Shown here piece after piece: positions 21,086-59,603 of a stretch of 64,000 nucleotides of DNA (the stretch's first letter is position 1; every line of letters begins with the position of its first letter). The position numbers and the translations under genes were made by a program. The DNA comes from Leptolyngbyaceae cyanobacterium (GTDB lineage Bacteria; Cyanobacteriota; Cyanobacteriia; Phormidesmidales; Phormidesmidaceae): positions 38,312-102,311 of the forward strand of contig CBDHHL010000014.1 of the NCBI GenBank assembly GCA_965263355.1, given 5' to 3'. The notes beneath the pieces were generated by a model, which was not told the origin of the DNA, ran no database searches, and was given only the letters and a program-made list of their open reading frames with translations.

Positions 21086-22456
21086 CTACCCCACCGTGTA
21101 GACGGATGGGGTTTCAACACTCCCCATCTTGCGGTGAGATTTCTGTCTCTTCGCCTGTCCCAGTTGCTTCATTCCTCCCGTATGTTTACGGTTTTCAGAA
21201 GTAGAGCTGAGACATCCAAGACTAACGAGGCTGAAATTTCCTAACCCCGGTTGATTGTTGGTCGCAACGTTGTACATCACCACAACTGAGCCACGGTCAC
21301 GGGGGATCTCAAAGCCGCATCCATCGCAGATGTGATAGCGGTTACTGAGTTCTGCCCAGTGTTTATGCACCTTGCCGCAGTTGGGGCAGCGTTGCGAAGG
21401 TTTGACCTTTTTGGTCGGCAAAAACAGGACTAAGCCCCCTTTTTGCTCAATCTTGTACGTCACCATTTTGTTGATGGTGCCAAAGCCAACAGATAGGATC
21501 TCGCGGTTGAGTCCAGCTTTCTGGCGTTTCCGCTTACTCCCCTTTTTGGCCTTTCGGGTCATCCCTTTAGTGTTGAGCTTTTCGGTAACGCCGATGTCAT
21601 AACGACTTGCAATGTCTGACGTTACCTTGTGCTGCCAGTCCTTACGCTGACGGGCAGCCTTAGCCTTCAACTTAGCCTCACGTCGATTCGCCTTCTTCCA
21701 TCGACGTGAGGCTTTTTGACCCTTTACAGGGTTACGCTTTCGGCGTTTAGTCTTAGCGACTTTCCGAACTTTTTTATTTGTCTCTCTACTAAACCTGGGA
21801 TTCTCCAGCTCGGCAAACTCCGAACCGTCAAACAGGGTCAGGGCTGTTTCTGTTCCCAGATCATAGGCAACCATCGACTCATACGCCAAGTCAGACTCAG
21901 ATCCAAATTGAACGACCGGATCTGCAACGTTGACCGTAATCGAGGCATACCAGGCTTTTTGACCAGGCTTGTAAATAATGGTGCATGTTGTCGGCACACC
22001 CCATTGCTTAGCCTTGCCGCGCATCTTGATCTTGATGCCCAACAGCTCTAAATACCCGTGTGTACCTTCAGTGTGGGCAATCCAGCCAGACTTAGCCGGA
22101 TAGGTCCACCCTGAGTACTTACGAATCGACTTGAACTTAGGCAAACCGCCTAAGCCTTTGAAAAACCGCTGATAAGCAAAATCAACACGCTTAAGTGTTG
22201 CCTGGATAGCTTGAGAGCCTAACGCCTTGAACTCTGGCCATTCAACCTTGAAGTCTGGCAAACAGTTCTGTTGAGCAAAGTAGTCAACAGAGATCCCCCA
22301 TTGCTTCCACATTGTTTTTCGCTCAGACACGGCAGCATTGTACAGATAGCAATGCAATCGACGTGCATCAAACAAAGCCCGCTCTTGAGCCTTGTTTGGA
22401 TACAGTCGAAATGTCTGCCGCCTTACTGCCATAAATAAATAGAGCGCAAAAAACAA
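21086..22456 (-). CDS. tnpB: RNA-guided endonuclease TnpB
   Basis: FRLYPN N-terminus, RuvC YDLG / TEKL / RD and CPNC-CDGC zinc finger; likely start ATG 22432. Confidence 0.92.
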   Translation of the reverse strand: MFFALYLFMAVRRQTFRLYPNKAQERALFDARRLHCYLYNAAVSERKTMWKQWGISVDYFAQQNCLPDFKVEWPEFKALGSQAIQATLKRVDFAYQRFFKGLGGLPKFKSIRKYSGWTYPAKSGWIAHTEGTHGYLELLGIKIKMRGKAKQWGVPTTCTIIYKPGQKAWYASITVNVADPVVQFGSESDLAYESMVAYDLGTETALTLFDGSEFAELENPRFSRETNKKVRKVAKTKRRKRNPVKGQKASRRWKKANRREAKLKAKAARQRKDWQHKVTSDIASRYDIGVTEKLNTKGMTRKAKKGSKRKRQKAGLNREILSVGFGTINKMVTYKIEQKGGLVLFLPTKKVKPSQRCPNCGKVHKHWAELSNRYHICDGCGFEIPRDRGSVVVMYNVATNNQPGLGNFSLVSLGCLSSTSENRKHTGGMKQLGQAKRQKSHRKMGSVETPSVYTVG

Positions 22457-24987: not shown

Positions 24988-26269
24988 CCTGCTTCATAAA
25001 ACCTATACAAACCTAGACATCTAGGATTAGTTGTTTACTAAACGCTTCAACTACAGGCGTCGGCGCTACTGTATCCACGTTTCTTAAAGAACTCAAGCCG
25101 AGTCCTATTTTCAGAATATTTAGAGCTGCATTAAAATCTCTGTCCAGCTTTGAACCGCAATTTTTACAGTCAAATATTCTATCCTTTAGAGTTAAATCTT
25201 CTTTTTTCCATCCGCATTGAGAACATGTTTTTGAACTTGGTTCCCAGCGCGAAATAAAGACCAATTCAGACTCATAAAGCTTGCATTTGTATTCAAGTTG
25301 GCGTCTGAATTCATGCCACCCCATCAAACTAATGGCACCTGCTAATTTATGATTTGCCATCATGCCTTTAATATTCAAATCTTCTAGGCATATGACAGAA
25401 AAGTTTTTAGCTAAATAGGTTGTTGATTTATGCAAAAAATCAAGCCTTATGCACTTTGCTTTATAGTGCAATTTTTGAATTTTTTGCATAGCTTTTTGCC
25501 ATCGGGTGGAACCTTTTGTTTTGTTCCTGGCTACGTATTGAAGCTTAGCTATTTTTGCCTTGATCCTTTTGTATTCAGTTATTGGAGCTTCTAAGATTTC
25601 ACCATTAGACAATGTTCCAAAAGTTTTTAGCCCTAAGTCGATCCCTACAGCAAGCTTGGTTTTTGCTTGTTGAATAGGTTCAACTTCTAGCCGAAAACTA
25701 ACAAACCATTTTGAACCGTCCCTAGAGATAGTTGCATTTTTAGGCTTAAACCCATTTGGCAGTTCTTCAAACGTTTTTACCCAACCAATGCGTGGTAACT
25801 TTATGGCTTTTTGCTGGCATGAAATACTGCCATCTAAGGTGAACGTATCACGGCATTTTCCTTTTTTCTTGAATTTTGGTGGACCTGAAATTTTCTTGAA
25901 ACACCTATCCCATGAGACACGTAAAGATCGTATAGCGTTTTGATGAGCAGCTTTACTGCATTCGTAATACCAAGGATTAGCCTTTTTGATTTCTCTACAA
26001 TGCCATTTATTTAGGTCAATTGCAGACGGGAATTTAACTTTTTGATCTGACTCTCCCAGCGACTTAGCTAATCTGTTGATATCTAAAATTAACTTTGTAT
26101 GGGCTAAAGCATGGTTCCAAGCATGACGAGCAATGCCACAATGCTTTTTGAAAGCTGTGATTTGCTTGTTGTTTGGTTTTAATTCAGTCTTAAATCCAAT
26201 CAGCATTGTGAACATTCTGTATAGATTTGTCTAGCTTTTCTCAGGTTTTAGGCTTCTAGAATTTCCTCC
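24988..26269 (-). mobile_element. Non-autonomous IS607-like tnpB element
   Basis: GG at both junctions; short TGT(A/C)TAG-type repeats at both ends in inverted arrangement; no transposase gene. Confidence 0.7.
25013..26215 (-). CDS. tnpB: RNA-guided endonuclease TnpB (IS607-type)
   Basis: GFKTELKPNNKQ, GIDLGLK, LEDL, CSQC/CKNC and DRDFNAA motifs. Confidence 0.92.
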   Translation of the reverse strand: MFTMLIGFKTELKPNNKQITAFKKHCGIARHAWNHALAHTKLILDINRLAKSLGESDQKVKFPSAIDLNKWHCREIKKANPWYYECSKAAHQNAIRSLRVSWDRCFKKISGPPKFKKKGKCRDTFTLDGSISCQQKAIKLPRIGWVKTFEELPNGFKPKNATISRDGSKWFVSFRLEVEPIQQAKTKLAVGIDLGLKTFGTLSNGEILEAPITEYKRIKAKIAKLQYVARNKTKGSTRWQKAMQKIQKLHYKAKCIRLDFLHKSTTYLAKNFSVICLEDLNIKGMMANHKLAGAISLMGWHEFRRQLEYKCKLYESELVFISRWEPSSKTCSQCGWKKEDLTLKDRIFDCKNCGSKLDRDFNAALNILKIGLGLSSLRNVDTVAPTPVVEAFSKQLILDV

Positions 26270-51554: not shown

Positions 51555-51628
51555 TCTTCTGAAAACCAGGGTGTGTTATTAGAGAGAGAGACCATGGATT
51601 TATATTGAACTAAAAATGGTTTAATTTG

Positions 51629-52372
51629 ATGCCTGATGCAGCATTAGCAAGAGCTGGATTTGAATTCAATCCTGATCCCGTCATCTTTGGGGATTCACAA
51701 CGCAAAATAGTCCTTGCTAATCCAGCGGCGGCTAGACTTTTTGAGTACGAAAATCCAACGGCAATGGTTGGGTTGAAAGTTTACAGCTTGGTTCCCGAAT
51801 CTCTTATATCAGAAAGCGCTCATGACAGAATGTATGACGCGTTTCTACGTGGTCAGAGGACCCGTGATATGGGTTCTGAAGCTCCGCTTTTTGGCAAAAC
51901 ACGAATGGGACGACAGATCCCTATCTGGCTACGACTATTTATTGTCAATCACGAAGGTGAAACTTATGTTGGCGAAGTCGTTCGAGATCGTACAGAATAT
52001 TTACGCCAAGAAGAACAAATAAAGGAGCAAGAGCAACAGGAGCGAGATTTGATCTTGCAATTGGAGAAATCCAATAAAGAACTGAAAGCGTCCAACAAGG
52101 ATATGCAAGTTCAATTGCGGCAATCTGAGCTACAAGAACTCGTCGTTAAGTGGCTGATCTATGCGGGTGTTTTTTTCTATCTGACCCCATTTTTATTAAG
52201 TATTTTTAGGCGAGTGCCAACGGAACTGATGTCTTTTGGCAGAGACGCTACGATCCTAGTGATCGGGGCGCTCGTTAATGCGACCGGTGCAGCTGTTGGT
52301 ATCGTATCAAAGGCTAAGGACATGGCTAATGAAAAGTCAATAGATAGCAAAACTCCTAATGCGAAACGATAG
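51629..52372 (+). CDS. PAS domain, coiled coil and two-TM protein
   Basis: IVLANPAAARLFEY...LVP...H...G.T..G..IPI...VVRDRTE PAS/PAC pattern; C-terminal TM pair. Confidence 0.8.
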   Translation: MPDAALARAGFEFNPDPVIFGDSQRKIVLANPAAARLFEYENPTAMVGLKVYSLVPESLISESAHDRMYDAFLRGQRTRDMGSEAPLFGKTRMGRQIPIWLRLFIVNHEGETYVGEVVRDRTEYLRQEEQIKEQEQQERDLILQLEKSNKELKASNKDMQVQLRQSELQELVVKWLIYAGVFFYLTPFLLSIFRRVPTELMSFGRDATILVIGALVNATGAAVGIVSKAKDMANEKSIDSKTPNAKR

Positions 52373-52997: not shown

Positions 52998-54155
52998 ATG
53001 AAATACATCATCGAGACATCAGATCAATTTCAAAATGCACTCAAAGTTGCTGAGGCAAGCGATCGTATCCTGCTAAAGTCTGGCGTTTATCAACATGAAG
53101 AATACAACACTTCATGGGAAACACGGACCCGTGGAAATGCTTTTTTTGCTAGTGGGCTAAAAGGAACAGCCGAAGCTCCAATTAGGATAATGCCGTTTGG
53201 GGATGGCCCTGTGACTATACTTTCTGACGTGAATGGTTTAGCGATAAAAGATTCTAAGTATATTATTATCGAGGGCATAGAGTTTATAGGGCCGAACTCA
53301 AAGCTGAGTACTGAGCAAGCTTTAGAGGTCTGGTGGAACGAAAACCCTATAATGATAACGGGCAGAGGAATTGCCTTAAATCGTTGCAGCAATATCGATA
53401 TAACAAGATGCCGAGTGCATCATTTCCCAGGGGCGGGAATATCCAGCAAGCACGGTTACGATATCAGCATTTACGATAACGCTATCTATAACAATTGCTG
53501 GTTCTCAATATCAGGATCGCATGGTATCGCGAATAGCGAGCCTAAAGGGCCTAGCGGATCTTCAATGAAGATCTACCGTAACCTGGTTTTTGGGAACCAA
53601 TGCTGTGTTATATCAAGGGTATTTTCCAAGGGTTATGTCACTTTGGCGTTAGACGAAGGCAACGGTATTCACTTTCAGAATGATGAAAAGATTTATAGGG
53701 GCGGGCTGCTGATAAAAGAGAACATTAGCGTGTTTAACGGGAAGGCAGGAATAGGCCTTAACAGAGTGTCGACACATCAGCTAGACTCAGCCATCATAAA
53801 AGATAATCTGCTAGCCGGTAACTGCATAACAACAGACTCAGGACAGCTCAGTGAGCGAGAAAGTCAAGTCTCTTTTATCCGGAACATATTGGGCGGTGAA
53901 CCCTACGTTAAGAGCATAGGGTTCTCTACAAGCGATTACGCTAGCAATATAGAGGCACCCGAGTTCGCTAGTCTATCGGATTTACTTCCTCCCGAAGGGG
54001 CAGAACTTAGAGAGACTTATACTAATATCTTGTCTCAGTTTAGTATGTTCGTTGCGCCCTGCGACCAGGAGATAAACTTGGAAAGCATGATAAAAAAGAT
54101 AAAAGATACTCAGCCAGCGGATATGGCGCATATAGAGTTTATAGAGCATTGCTAA
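52998..54155 (+). CDS. Right-handed parallel beta-helix (pectin-lyase-like) protein
   Basis: D.ILLKSG.Y, GTAEAPI.I, YIIIEGIEF, GI/N-ladder repeats and DEGNGI. Confidence 0.75.
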   Translation: MKYIIETSDQFQNALKVAEASDRILLKSGVYQHEEYNTSWETRTRGNAFFASGLKGTAEAPIRIMPFGDGPVTILSDVNGLAIKDSKYIIIEGIEFIGPNSKLSTEQALEVWWNENPIMITGRGIALNRCSNIDITRCRVHHFPGAGISSKHGYDISIYDNAIYNNCWFSISGSHGIANSEPKGPSGSSMKIYRNLVFGNQCCVISRVFSKGYVTLALDEGNGIHFQNDEKIYRGGLLIKENISVFNGKAGIGLNRVSTHQLDSAIIKDNLLAGNCITTDSGQLSERESQVSFIRNILGGEPYVKSIGFSTSDYASNIEAPEFASLSDLLPPEGAELRETYTNILSQFSMFVAPCDQEINLESMIKKIKDTQPADMAHIEFIEHC

Positions 54156-54342
54156 GTTTCAGTCCCTTAACAGGGATTAAAGCTTTAGCAGCCTTCATCT
54201 AAGGCCATGGTTGCGAAGCACTTAGAGAAGTTTCAGTCCCTGTTAAGGGATTAAAGCTTTAGCAGCTAGGGTTCTCTACAAGCGATTACGCTAGCAATAT
54301 CAAGAGTTTCAGTCCCTGTTAAGGGATTAAAGCTTTAGCAGC
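54156..54342 (-). CRISPR. CRISPR mini-array: three 37-nt repeats and two spacers (37 and 39 nt)
   Basis: Repeats at 54156-54192, 54230-54266 and 54306-54342. Minus-strand consensus GCTGCTAAAGCTTTAATCCCTTAACAGGGACTGAAAC has an internal hairpin and a GAAAC end. Confidence 0.92.
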
Positions 54343-54662
54343 TGCATAAGCTGCATCCCTTTAGCAGCAAGGCTTTATGAGCGATTCTGGCAAAGCTCAG
54401 AAAATGGCAATCCTGCCAAAGCTTTAATCTCTGTTTTTCAAGGTTGTTTTTTAGCATCGCTTAGCTTTGCCAAAAAAAGATGAGACTGTTCGCCATAGAT
54501 CCGGCGAATCTATAAGGGCCTTACGGACTCCTTTTGCTCCTATCTTGCCTTTCGGCTGGTGTTTGCCAGTTTCCCAGCAAAAGATGCCCATAGCCCCCTA
54601 AAGAGCCTTAGCGCTGAAGCCATCCAACAACGTTTCCGCTGCCTTGTCGCCCAAACTGCGAT
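54343..54662 (-). ncRNA. Putative leader/tracrRNA-like RNA containing an anti-repeat
   Basis: 54413-54432 matches the repeat at 18/20 in inverted orientation; leftward promoter at 54698-54669; no long ORF. Confidence 0.5.
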
Positions 54663-54668
54663 GTCCTT

Positions 54669-54698
54669 ATATTAGCGTGCTATGATTTTGTACGTCAA
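54669..54698. promoter_or_regulatory. Overlapping divergent promoters
   Basis: Minus strand TTGACG-N18-TAATAT; plus strand TGC-TATGAT extended -10 at 54678-54686. Confidence 0.55.
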
Positions 54699-54714: not shown

Positions 54715-54891
54715 ATGGGGAAAGAGAATAGAGAAGGCAGGATTTACGCCCGCATCAAGCAAAGTCGCAAACAAAAGCTAGAGCAATATTGTAAGCTTTG
54801 GAATATATCGATCGCTGACCTATTGGAACGCTTTATTGATATGCTGCCAGAACTCCCGAAAATAGACGCACAAAACAATGAAGACAATTAA
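54715..54891 (+). CDS. Ribbon-helix-helix regulator, 58 aa, not in the ORF track
   Basis: MGKENREGRIYARIKQSRKQKLEQYCKLWNISIADLLERFIDMLP...; overlaps the nuclease start. Confidence 0.75.
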   Translation: MGKENREGRIYARIKQSRKQKLEQYCKLWNISIADLLERFIDMLPELPKIDAQNNEDN

Positions 54892-56611
54892 AGTAAAAGT
54901 TCAGCCAACTCCGGAGACGCTAATTAAATACGAGAAAATTTGCAGAGAACTTGAATGGCTATGGAACTATGTAAGGGCCGTAGCCTTACATAATCATTGC
55001 CTTGAATGGTATGCGTGGGCCGAGGGGAAAGGCGCTAACTTGTCAGGCTGCATTAAAACGCCGCTACGCTTTTCAAAGAATGGCGGATGGATTGGAGCAG
55101 CTTGTCAGATTGCTAAAGGAGGGCCATATTTTAAGAAGTCAGATAAAGCTCCTTTGATTCACTATGACGATGGCAAAACGAAACAAGGCTATGAATTAGT
55201 GGCTGGGGATAAGCCATATGAGCCAATAAAGCCAGAGCGTCATAGATATCGCGAAGTCTCTTATTCCAGTAAAGGTACCTCAATAACCCGTTCCAGTAAA
55301 AGCACCTCAATAACCCGCGAGCTAAAAGGAAAAGGTTGGGGCCTAGACAATATGGCGTTACTAAATGCGTCACGAAGTTCTCAGGGTCTTGATGAATTAA
55401 CTTGCCATAGCGATTTTGTTGGAGGGCTACTAGCTGACTTTGAAGTTGCCTGGGATGCGTATTTAAACACAAAACTGCCTGCCAGAAAGCAGCCAAAGTA
55501 TAAGGACGGCAAGCAACGTAAAATTAGCACGTTGAACAATAATCAAAAAACTATCCCGTTCAAAAAAGGACAATTCAACGGTCAAGGCTTAGTTTTAGAG
55601 CCGTGCGATCGCAGCTATAAAAAAAGGCTTGAAGGCTACGTAACAAAAACTTATAAGTTGACATTAAAGCCGAGCGGCTTCTATTTATGCTTAATTGCTC
55701 AAAGTGAAGCGGAAGAAGAGAATAGATTAAAACTCAAACAGCAAGGAAAAGCTTTAAGTTCTATCAAGAAAAAAATTCTTGATAGCATTAAAGGGAAGAA
55801 AGAACAAACTAAGGCATTAGCTAACAGTGAAGAATATCAAGCGGCATTAGCCAAGAAAAAGTCAATAGAGAATGAGTTGCCATACTTGCTAATAGAAGAC
55901 TCAAAATGCGCTAAACGAACCGGGCATATGGCGGGCATTGACCCTGGGATTAAGGCAATTGTAGCGACTGACGAAGGTCATTTATTTAATCCTAACGAAA
56001 GCCGAGAACGCATACAAAATCATATTGAAAAGCTGCAATCTAAGCTTGACATTATGACTGAAAAAAATGATAAGCGGCTAGACCAAATATGGAAGCGTGG
56101 GCAGCGTGAAGCCACTAATAACGAGCAAAAACTTAGAGATAAAATATCCAGGCTGCATGAACGAGCTGCTAATAGTTCAAACGCGTTTAATCATAAGTTA
56201 TCAACCAGGTTAGCAAGAACTTATGATGTCATCGCCTGGGAGGCTACGGCGTTAACTAACATGGGGAGACAGACAACGCCTAAATTAGCTGAAGATGGAA
56301 GTTGTTACGAGCAAAACGGCAGAGCAGCCAAGGCAGGATTGAACAGATCTTTGAAAACAGCTTGCATGGGTGACCTTAGAGCTAAGACAAAATCTAAATT
56401 AAAGGAAGCCGGGAAAACGTATGCAGAAACCGAAGCTAGATACTCCTCCCAACGCTGTCATTGTTGTGGGGGAAAAGGCATTAGGCCGACTCAAGACACG
56501 TTTATTTGTTTGAATGAACAATGTGATTTATTCAATGAGAAACAAAACGCAGATACTAACGCTGCTAAAAATCACAAGAACAATGGCTTGAAGATGCTTA
56601 AGGTTGGTTGA
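54878..56611 (+). CDS. CRISPR-associated TnpB-derived type V effector (Cas12/C2c8-like), 577 aa
   Basis: RuvC-I GIDPG, RuvC-II AWE, CHCC...C...C zinc finger and RuvC-III NADTNAAKN; adjacent to the array, no tnpA. Confidence 0.8.
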   Translation: MKTIKVKVQPTPETLIKYEKICRELEWLWNYVRAVALHNHCLEWYAWAEGKGANLSGCIKTPLRFSKNGGWIGAACQIAKGGPYFKKSDKAPLIHYDDGKTKQGYELVAGDKPYEPIKPERHRYREVSYSSKGTSITRSSKSTSITRELKGKGWGLDNMALLNASRSSQGLDELTCHSDFVGGLLADFEVAWDAYLNTKLPARKQPKYKDGKQRKISTLNNNQKTIPFKKGQFNGQGLVLEPCDRSYKKRLEGYVTKTYKLTLKPSGFYLCLIAQSEAEEENRLKLKQQGKALSSIKKKILDSIKGKKEQTKALANSEEYQAALAKKKSIENELPYLLIEDSKCAKRTGHMAGIDPGIKAIVATDEGHLFNPNESRERIQNHIEKLQSKLDIMTEKNDKRLDQIWKRGQREATNNEQKLRDKISRLHERAANSSNAFNHKLSTRLARTYDVIAWEATALTNMGRQTTPKLAEDGSCYEQNGRAAKAGLNRSLKTACMGDLRAKTKSKLKEAGKTYAETEARYSSQRCHCCGGKGIRPTQDTFICLNEQCDLFNEKQNADTNAAKNHKNNGLKMLKVG

Positions 56612-58503: not shown

Positions 58504-58569
58504 AATCTTTTTCTCTCGCTTGCTACTCTTCTAATATACCCTCACCCTTTGTCACATGTCTAGGGAGTG

Positions 58570-59389: not shown

Positions 59390-59603
59390 TTATTTTTCTC
59401 TCTCTCGCTTGCTACTCTTCTAATATACCCTCACCCTTTGTCACAATACAACCCCCTGTCATTTATCCGTACATTGGGCATGACTACCTGGAAAATTTTT
59501 TGTTAGTAATTTCTTTTGCCAAAAATGACCGCAACTGAAAACCTTTGTCTATTGCTGTCAGCATTGGAAGCTTGATACAATGCTGTCAGCACCCTAACAG
59601 TCC

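Follow-up and report, generated by a model that had tools for sequence, protein, structure and literature searches.

The closest described relative of the system reported here is Cas12p (type V-P, also named 'Cas12 hacker'), a phage-borne effector of 500–700 amino acids whose structure has been solved in complex with its RNA (bioRxiv 10.1101/2025.01.20.633832; PDB 9JFS, 9JG3). That work reports a RuvC triad of D378/E478/D582, a PAM measured as GTN, and a resolved RNA of 118 tracrRNA nucleotides and 10 repeat nucleotides, in which tracrRNA bases 7G–10U form a pseudoknot with crRNA positions −1C to −4A (10.1101/2025.01.20.633832). GTN is also the reported PAM of type I-D in Synechocystis (PMC5896167). 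In type V-K, as reported for AnCAST of Anabaena 7120, the tracrRNA precedes the array and shares its strand, and a joint tracrRNA-array precursor from one promoter is already established (PMC9938897, PMC12416283); two separated anti-repeats are described there and in V-B, V-F1 and V-G (PMC12416283). Type V effectors in phages further include V-U2 (C2c8) of cyanophage CL131, a TnpB-derived protein encoded with an array (PMC6293099), and Cas12r of Thermus phages, a system reported to have no adaptation genes, to echo the repeat and PAM of a host class 1 system, to recognize an ARG PAM and not to need a tracrRNA (10.64898/2026.04.20.719267). Pairing of leader RNA with the first repeat in cis is described for types II-A and VI-B, where it competes with the repeat's own fold and blocks the extraneous crRNA that the first repeat yields (PMC13187072, summarizing Liao 2022). 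We found no description of a leader anti-repeat for Cas12p or for type V, and the word 'leader' is absent from the main text, supplements aside, of the Cas12p preprint (10.1101/2025.01.20.633832).

Here we analyse a 64-kb stretch of DNA (the window), in which positions 54343–54698 cover the leader and the tracrRNA gene belonging to a divergent CRISPR-Cas12p (type V-P) system of a phage (Table 1). The system is a divergent member of an already published type, whose pseudoknot and PAM are published too; its unusual part is a third anti-repeat arm, 46 nucleotides past the tracrRNA core, in a leader of host type. With Cas12p it has in common a phage-borne effector in the 500–700-residue range, the catalytic and PAM-contacting residues, the PAM, the pairing of tracrRNA GUUU with repeat AAAC, and a short second duplex. 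Like V-K it has a same-strand tracrRNA upstream of the array, two separated short anti-repeats and, likely, a joint one-promoter precursor, but it differs in its intact RuvC domain, its scaffold and the third arm. It resembles the CL131 system in placing a TnpB-derived effector and an array in a cyanophage. Like Cas12r, it is a phage type V system with no adaptation genes of its own, and its repeat and PAM are reminiscent of those of a host class 1 system.

Table 1. Positions of the features of the Cas12p locus in the window
Feature	Position	Strand	Remarks
Cas12p-family nuclease gene	54878..56611	+	577 aa; RuvC D355/E455/D559 intact; divergent from RNA cassette
Predicted sigma-70-type promoter (-35 TTGACG, -10 TAATAT)	54669..54698	-	predicted start 54662
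Cas12p-type tracrRNA core, about 181 nt	54482..54662	-	homology and covarying stems
5' hairpin	54647..54662	-	loop with GUUU, 54656-54653 (RNA positions 7-10)
Long stem	54536..54606	-	arms 54606-54601 and 54541-54536; encloses most of a lineage-specific insertion
Last conserved tracrRNA hairpin	54489..54508	-	compensatory changes relative to homologs
Proximal anti-repeat CAGUCUC	54482..54488	-	7 pairs with repeat GGGACUG, one of them G-U
U7 run past core	54472..54478	-	possible 3' end or leaky terminator (inferred)
Promoter-side arm of 12/13 inverted repeat	54460..54472		resembles leader arms of homologs
Leader motif CCTTGAAAAAC	54433..54443	-	type seen in host cyanobacterial CRISPR leaders
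Distal anti-repeat	54413..54435	-	complements first 20-23 repeat bases
Array-side arm of 12/13 inverted repeat	54388..54400		
Repeat 1 (leader end)	54306..54341	-	36 nt, GAAAC end, internal hairpin
Leader-proximal spacer	54266..54305	-	40 nt; near-match to neighbouring gene
Repeat 2	54230..54265	-	36 nt
Second spacer	54192..54229	-	38 nt
Repeat 3 (trailer end)	54156..54191	-	36 nt; loop of hairpin inverted compared with the other two repeats
Near-match protospacer in adjacent beta-helix gene (52998-54155)	53916..53955	-	GTG PAM

A divergent Cas12p effector in a tailed phage

Genes for terminase, portal, major head and tape-measure proteins mark the window as part of a tailed phage, and the genes on either side of the Cas12p gene are phage genes. 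Since homologs occur in Cylindrospermopsis phages and in a Nostocaceae genome, and given the family to which the repeat belongs, the host is probably a cyanobacterium; among 400 sampled genomes of the phylum, apart from the central genome G001, the Cas12p family was found in none. A PADLOC scan of 25 window open reading frames, a set that most frames below 150 aa fall outside, matched three TnpB/Cas12-like proteins only, with no match to Cas1, Cas2, Cas4 or Cas6. Two further TnpB-like genes of the same phage lie on the minus strand at 21086–22456 and 25013–26215, and a gene for a PAS-domain membrane protein sits amid the tail genes (51626–52372). Beyond the effector gene, an exact 45-nt direct repeat (58512–58556 and 59401–59445, 889 nt apart) surrounds small genes, and sister contigs skip parts of the DNA between its copies.

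The 577-residue protein matches the solved Cas12p (PDB 9JFS) with an E value of 2e-111 in phmmer. Its identity to L006, a homologous locus whose sequence agrees with the stretches of 9JFS printed in the alignment and which serves as our stand-in for the solved protein, is 43.6%, and a quick tree unites the two in one clade with a support of 100, CL131-like proteins standing apart. All three residues of the RuvC triad are kept (D378, E478 and D582 corresponding to D355, E455 and D559), and the PAM contacts D197, N261, Q262 and K332 align with D157, N222, Q223 and K287, the last of these in a less certain stretch of the alignment. In the thioredoxin pocket, 8 of 14 residues are identical, including C127 (C76 here); W102 falls inside a deletion, and L51, F105, I110, V113 and I172 are changed. 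About 52 residues of the REC region are absent relative to the solved protein. What the locus offers is a shorter Cas12p whose thioredoxin pocket is altered and whose tracrRNA is larger, and the boundaries required for guide design are already mapped. Within the gene we also note a 27-nt tandem duplication (55264–55317) and, in sister strains, an 11-codon insertion near 55036 (about 55028–55036).

Two other assignments were considered for the effector and dropped. V-U2 (C2c8), the type of its best PADLOC match and our first assignment, is contradicted by a score of 168.9 bits against a curated c2c8 cut-off of 350 in NCBIfam, by 185 bits with the PADLOC Cas12u2 model, for which the CL131 protein scores 526, and by the separate clade; the repeats differ too, and CL131-like V-U2 loci (L172:4154-4410, L014-L028) gave no match to the tracrRNA profile of the window. 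Type V-K, whose Cas12k serves Tn7-like transposition without nuclease activity, is excluded by the intact RuvC triad and by flanking genes that are phage genes rather than Tn7-like ones.

A conserved tracrRNA scaffold behind a recurring promoter

The preliminary description had proposed a leftward TTGACG-N18-TAATAT promoter at 54698–54669, and it is present there, pointing to the array. Taken alone such a match is no more than chance would give (19 sites, where shuffled sequence has 15.4 ± 4.5), yet the pattern TTGAC.-N17/18-TA...T stands exactly 6 nt ahead of the conserved first base in 10 of 13 family RNAs. The proposal that a tracrRNA lies under this promoter is supported by these recurring elements together with a conserved scaffold and covarying stems. 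A plus-strand promoter-like match at 54644–54673, at chance level when taken alone, overlaps the tracrRNA start and the leftward −10 element and possibly serves the effector gene.

The covariance analysis across homologous loci that had been suggested as a check bears the scaffold out: over 17 sequences, 98.3% of cells are paired and 12 of 17 pairs show two-sided change, values reached by none of 500 shuffles and by no slid control. This covariation is strong but is not a probability, because the structure was derived from the same alignment and the sequences are related. A tracrRNA profile finds the window RNA with an E value of 4e-13, the window sequence having been part of its training set; pattern searches for the scaffold gave mostly chance matches, which we filtered by the profile search. 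At the DNA level the RNA region has no match in phage records, and no Rfam family reaches its gathering score in the window; one chance-level match lies elsewhere.

The core is about 60 nt longer than in most homologs, its last hairpin ending at RNA position 174, against 112–116 in 9 of 11 homolog sets and 127 and 135 in the other two. Homologous loci carry the conserved RNA between effector gene and array, and those seen linked to an array have the cassette downstream of the gene; by contrast, the window has a single scaffold copy, which starts at 54662 on the minus strand and is read away from the effector gene, on its upstream side. Such a placement recurs in L085, where a fused tracrRNA-repeat stub with an AAAC end (718–578, minus strand) is directed away from the effector gene from a position 263 nt upstream, a second copy lying downstream; L008 likewise carries an upstream, divergent scaffold copy.

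Short anti-repeats and the pseudoknot

Two short elements of the tracrRNA together match the last 11 bases of the repeat. The proximal anti-repeat, directly after the last hairpin, complements the bases ahead of the repeat's final four, and GUUU in the 5' hairpin loop matches the terminal AAAC, a pairing predicted, at the level of sequence, to form the pseudoknot known from the solved Cas12p. A short complementary stretch of the proximal kind follows the last hairpin in each RNA of the family. The earlier idea that the GAAAC 3' end of the repeat stays free is thus wrong, and the contrast drawn from it with Cas12f and Cas12k, whose tracrRNAs pair with the spacer-adjacent part, falls away, as that part has matching anti-repeats here as well. 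Loop and repeat change together across the family (23 of 24 tabulated rows counted, L300 being the one left uncounted): all 13 RNAs with a GUUU loop have an anchored partner followed by AAAC, whereas of the 10 tabulated with a GUUC loop six have GAAC, four lack a site and none has AAAC. The change from one loop to the other may have been a single event.

A separate variation concerns the six-base hairpin loop of the repeat: the sequence that repeats 1 and 2 share appears as its reverse complement in repeat 3, and the repeat 3 form predominates in sister strains.

Spacers point to a GTR PAM and to sister phages

The leader-proximal spacer nearly matches the adjacent gene at 53916–53955, with mismatches at positions 1, 4, 5 and 40. 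Sister strains hold an allele that matches the spacer at positions 4 and 5, and another sister strain has a spacer from 53894–53926, on whose 5' side the sequence reads GTA. For the second spacer, neither the window nor the phage records yielded a target, and an overlay of 20 kb of reads gave no additional protospacers. For the whole family, targets could be located within 2.3 Mb of retrieved DNA for 12 of 145 spacers. Read in the GAAAC orientation, 7 of these 12 targets have GTA or GTG directly on their 5' side (GT at −3/−2, p 2e-6), six of the seven coming from the near-identical arrays L088 and L089 and one from the window. From these flanks we infer a GTR PAM, which fixes the array in the leftward orientation assumed in the preliminary description. 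Sister phages are the likely targets: the alleles and the spacer of sister strains fit competition between sister phages, as has been reviewed for viral mini-arrays (PMC11656645). Arrays of L008/L012 and L089 contain spacers against Cas12p genes of related phages, one of which matches the Cas12p gene of its own group exactly, behind TTG rather than GTN.

A third anti-repeat in the leader

Positions 54413–54432 had been described as an 18/20 inverted copy of the first 20 minus-strand bases of the repeat, lying between the arms of an inverted repeat, 54388–54400 and 54460–54472; both observations hold. The match extends to 21/23 against the leftmost repeat (repeat 3, with the inverted loop), and in the 64-kb window it is the sole site, the three repeats aside, with five or fewer mismatches to the repeat. 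None of 200 shuffles of the leader equals it (p 0.005). The arm starts 46 nt past the proximal anti-repeat, beyond the U7 run and directly behind the leader motif shared with hosts; the RNA core resolved for Cas12p does not include it. The U7 run has one extra base in sister strains. In these strains 54430 is C, which takes away the only non-pairing position of the arm.

The count of 19/20 pairs with G-U allowed, given earlier for the minus strand, is correct, and the plus strand reaches 19/20 as well, so that pairing by itself leaves the strand unfixed. An array read rightward, whose anti-repeat would pair with the spacer-adjacent half of a plus-strand repeat, could draw on this equality and on the plus-strand promoter match, though that match lies downstream of the arm; as scaffold, promoter, GAAAC end, PAM and solved homolog all fit the minus strand, we regard such a reading as hardly credible.

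A complement of the 5' part of the repeat that exceeds shuffled expectation is present in six of the 11 family leaders, compared with one of the 17 host leaders (Fisher p 0.007; 0.015 with the near-copies L088 and L089 merged), counts that are not independent events because the leaders are related. The 17 host leaders come from 31 loci; the remainder were set aside because the first repeat lay at the edge of the locus, the DNA upstream resembled a repeat, the leader duplicated another or there was no array that could be used. Part of the match consists of the core GGGATT, which is found in some host leaders too; beyond this shared core, the arm's cognate repeat is its best or tied-best partner in all five repeat types (1 of 120 permutations). 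In five of the 11 family leaders, including that of L006, the arm is not significant. In L002, L004 and L090 the distal anti-repeat is accompanied by a long proximal one, and since they carry both, the distal arm is not simply a displaced piece of the proximal.

These comparisons bear on whether the arm has a role in RNA at all. It might be a relic, or a leader feature acting in DNA, such as an inverted partial repeat whose likeness is maintained by recombination or template switching, the two short anti-repeats sufficing for guide formation. The inverted repeat loop is a sign of template switching, and this account would also fit the position of the arm outside the solved core, its absence from 5 of 11 leaders and the lack of a folding benefit in homologs described below. 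Against it, the arm tracks its cognate repeat in every repeat type, is rare in host leaders of the same repeat family, and departs in sister strains only at a site that is G-U-compatible on the transcribed strand; on balance we consider a relic unlikely.

Probable co-transcription and predicted folding of the arm on repeat 1

The RNA of roughly 320 nt proposed to run up to the first repeat agrees with the distance from the predicted start at 54662 to repeat 1, 321 nt. A −10-like hexamer stands 45–95 nt ahead of repeat 1 in 15 of 17 host leaders of the same repeat family, whereas the window leader has none after the core; one is present in 3 of 10 family leaders. Its absence makes likely, as had been suggested, a single transcript that runs from about 54662 through the leader into the array, although the U7 run could end most transcripts ahead of the arm, which would count against this arrangement.

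In folding models of window transcripts, which leave out pseudoknots, protein and kinetics, the arm pairs with repeat 1 with a probability of 0.81–0.91. The internal hairpin of repeat 1 has a probability of 0.12 in the native sequence and of 0.79 when the arm is shuffled, and pairing of the proximal anti-repeat moves in the opposite direction, from 0.85 native to 0.17 shuffled; in a short transcript the latter values are 0.98 and 0.19, with none of 15 shuffles as high as the native arm. The earlier claim of a fold-back on the repeat in cis is thus upheld by the models, apart from the free GAAAC end that had been attached to it. A general chaperone role of family leaders finds no such support: proximal pairing is better in native than in shuffled leaders in 0 of 10 homologs, and in three (L001, L008a and L088) the native leader does worse.

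Instead of being a device for the first repeat, the arm could form the 3' terminus of a mature tracrRNA as long as about 250 nt, and so belong to a split anti-repeat 2 that pairs in trans with any repeat. Its fit to the repeat 3 form (22/23 pairs, against 19/23 with repeat 1), the repeat 3 form flanking spacers derived from sister-strain reads, and the single contiguous anti-repeat that covers most of the repeat in L002, L004 and L090 all speak for pairing in trans. We nonetheless find it doubtful, for in a transcript with two repeats the model pairs the arm with repeat 1 at 0.81 and with repeat 2 at 0.02, and the U7 run and leader motifs lie between arm and core.

The whole is best explained, we think with middling confidence, by a distal arm that is a third anti-repeat and, in cis on one transcript, binds the 5' half of repeat 1. 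One promoter would drive tracrRNA, leader and array. The arm would then pair with the 5' half of repeat 1, looping out 46 nt, and open the repeat's hairpin, which would let the seven proximal pairs form and free the 3' half of repeat 1 for the two short anti-repeats; because the proximal anti-repeat provides only these seven pairs, the arm would supply the rest of the duplex. GUUU would form its pseudoknot with AAAC and the short anti-repeat the stem held by Cas12p, as in the solved homolog, and the arm-repeat helix of 20–23 pairs may be trimmed by a host RNase such as RNase III. New spacers would be supplied by the host's type I-D adaptation proteins, a likely source because leader, repeat family and PAM resemble those of host class 1 arrays.

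The fold predicted here resembles that of the II-A and VI-B leaders, in that leader RNA pairs with the first repeat in cis and competes with its fold, and an inhibitory arm has to be weighed: it might damp crRNA 1, or conceal the hairpin of repeat 1 from the Cas6 of the host, and so restrain self-attack or keep the guide from being diverted. The precedent (PMC13187072), the loss of the repeat hairpin in the models, the host class 1 family of the repeat and a leader-proximal spacer that nearly matches the phage's own gene are in keeping with inhibition. The layout is different, however: the window has repeat-guide units with a 5' PAM rather than the guide-repeat units of II-A and VI-B, and in type V the first repeat heads the newest useful guide. 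The 16 bases at the 3' end of the repeat stay available, and their predicted pairing with the tracrRNA rises, so that the arm is predicted to help rather than block, and inhibition appears quite improbable.

Returning to a third anti-repeat that acts in cis, we offer a broader and more tentative proposal: that Cas12p phages put this element into a leader taken over from class 1 arrays of their hosts, where it would serve as a built-in RNA chaperone. It would melt the Cas6-type hairpin of repeat 1 and pass the newest guide in cis to the tracrRNA, so that the two form a natural single-guide precursor; it would also shield that guide from host processing and favour the newest spacer in a type V system. 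If the arm works as predicted, type V would join types II-A and VI in using leader-repeat pairing, but to the opposite effect, and a phage would share the repeat and adaptation proteins of its host while keeping the guides for its own nuclease.

Scaffold copies and second modules in homologous loci

Stand-alone scaffold copies occur in CrV-01T/Cr-LKS4-like phages (L170:1798-1923, L171:2009-2134, L176, L242, L246, L275, L210 and L222). These have the GUUC loop, a short fused stem and a GAAC end, like natural single-guide RNAs, and the sequence downstream of them continues into phage genes; the 700 nt ahead of the Cas12p-like genes in L170 and L171 showed no array. The guide of L171 matches gene sequence in L170 and L171 at 93–97%, and that of L246 matches L242/L268 over 22 nt, in both cases with no GTN PAM on the 5' side.

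Other loci combine modules. L008 (895, minus strand, and 4901, plus strand) and G476 each have one effector and two tracrRNA-array modules with different repeats, each leader pairing better with the repeat of the other module than with its own in an early test in which the repeat ends were mis-set in three sets. L006 has a second array, of a CL131-like repeat type, in reverse.
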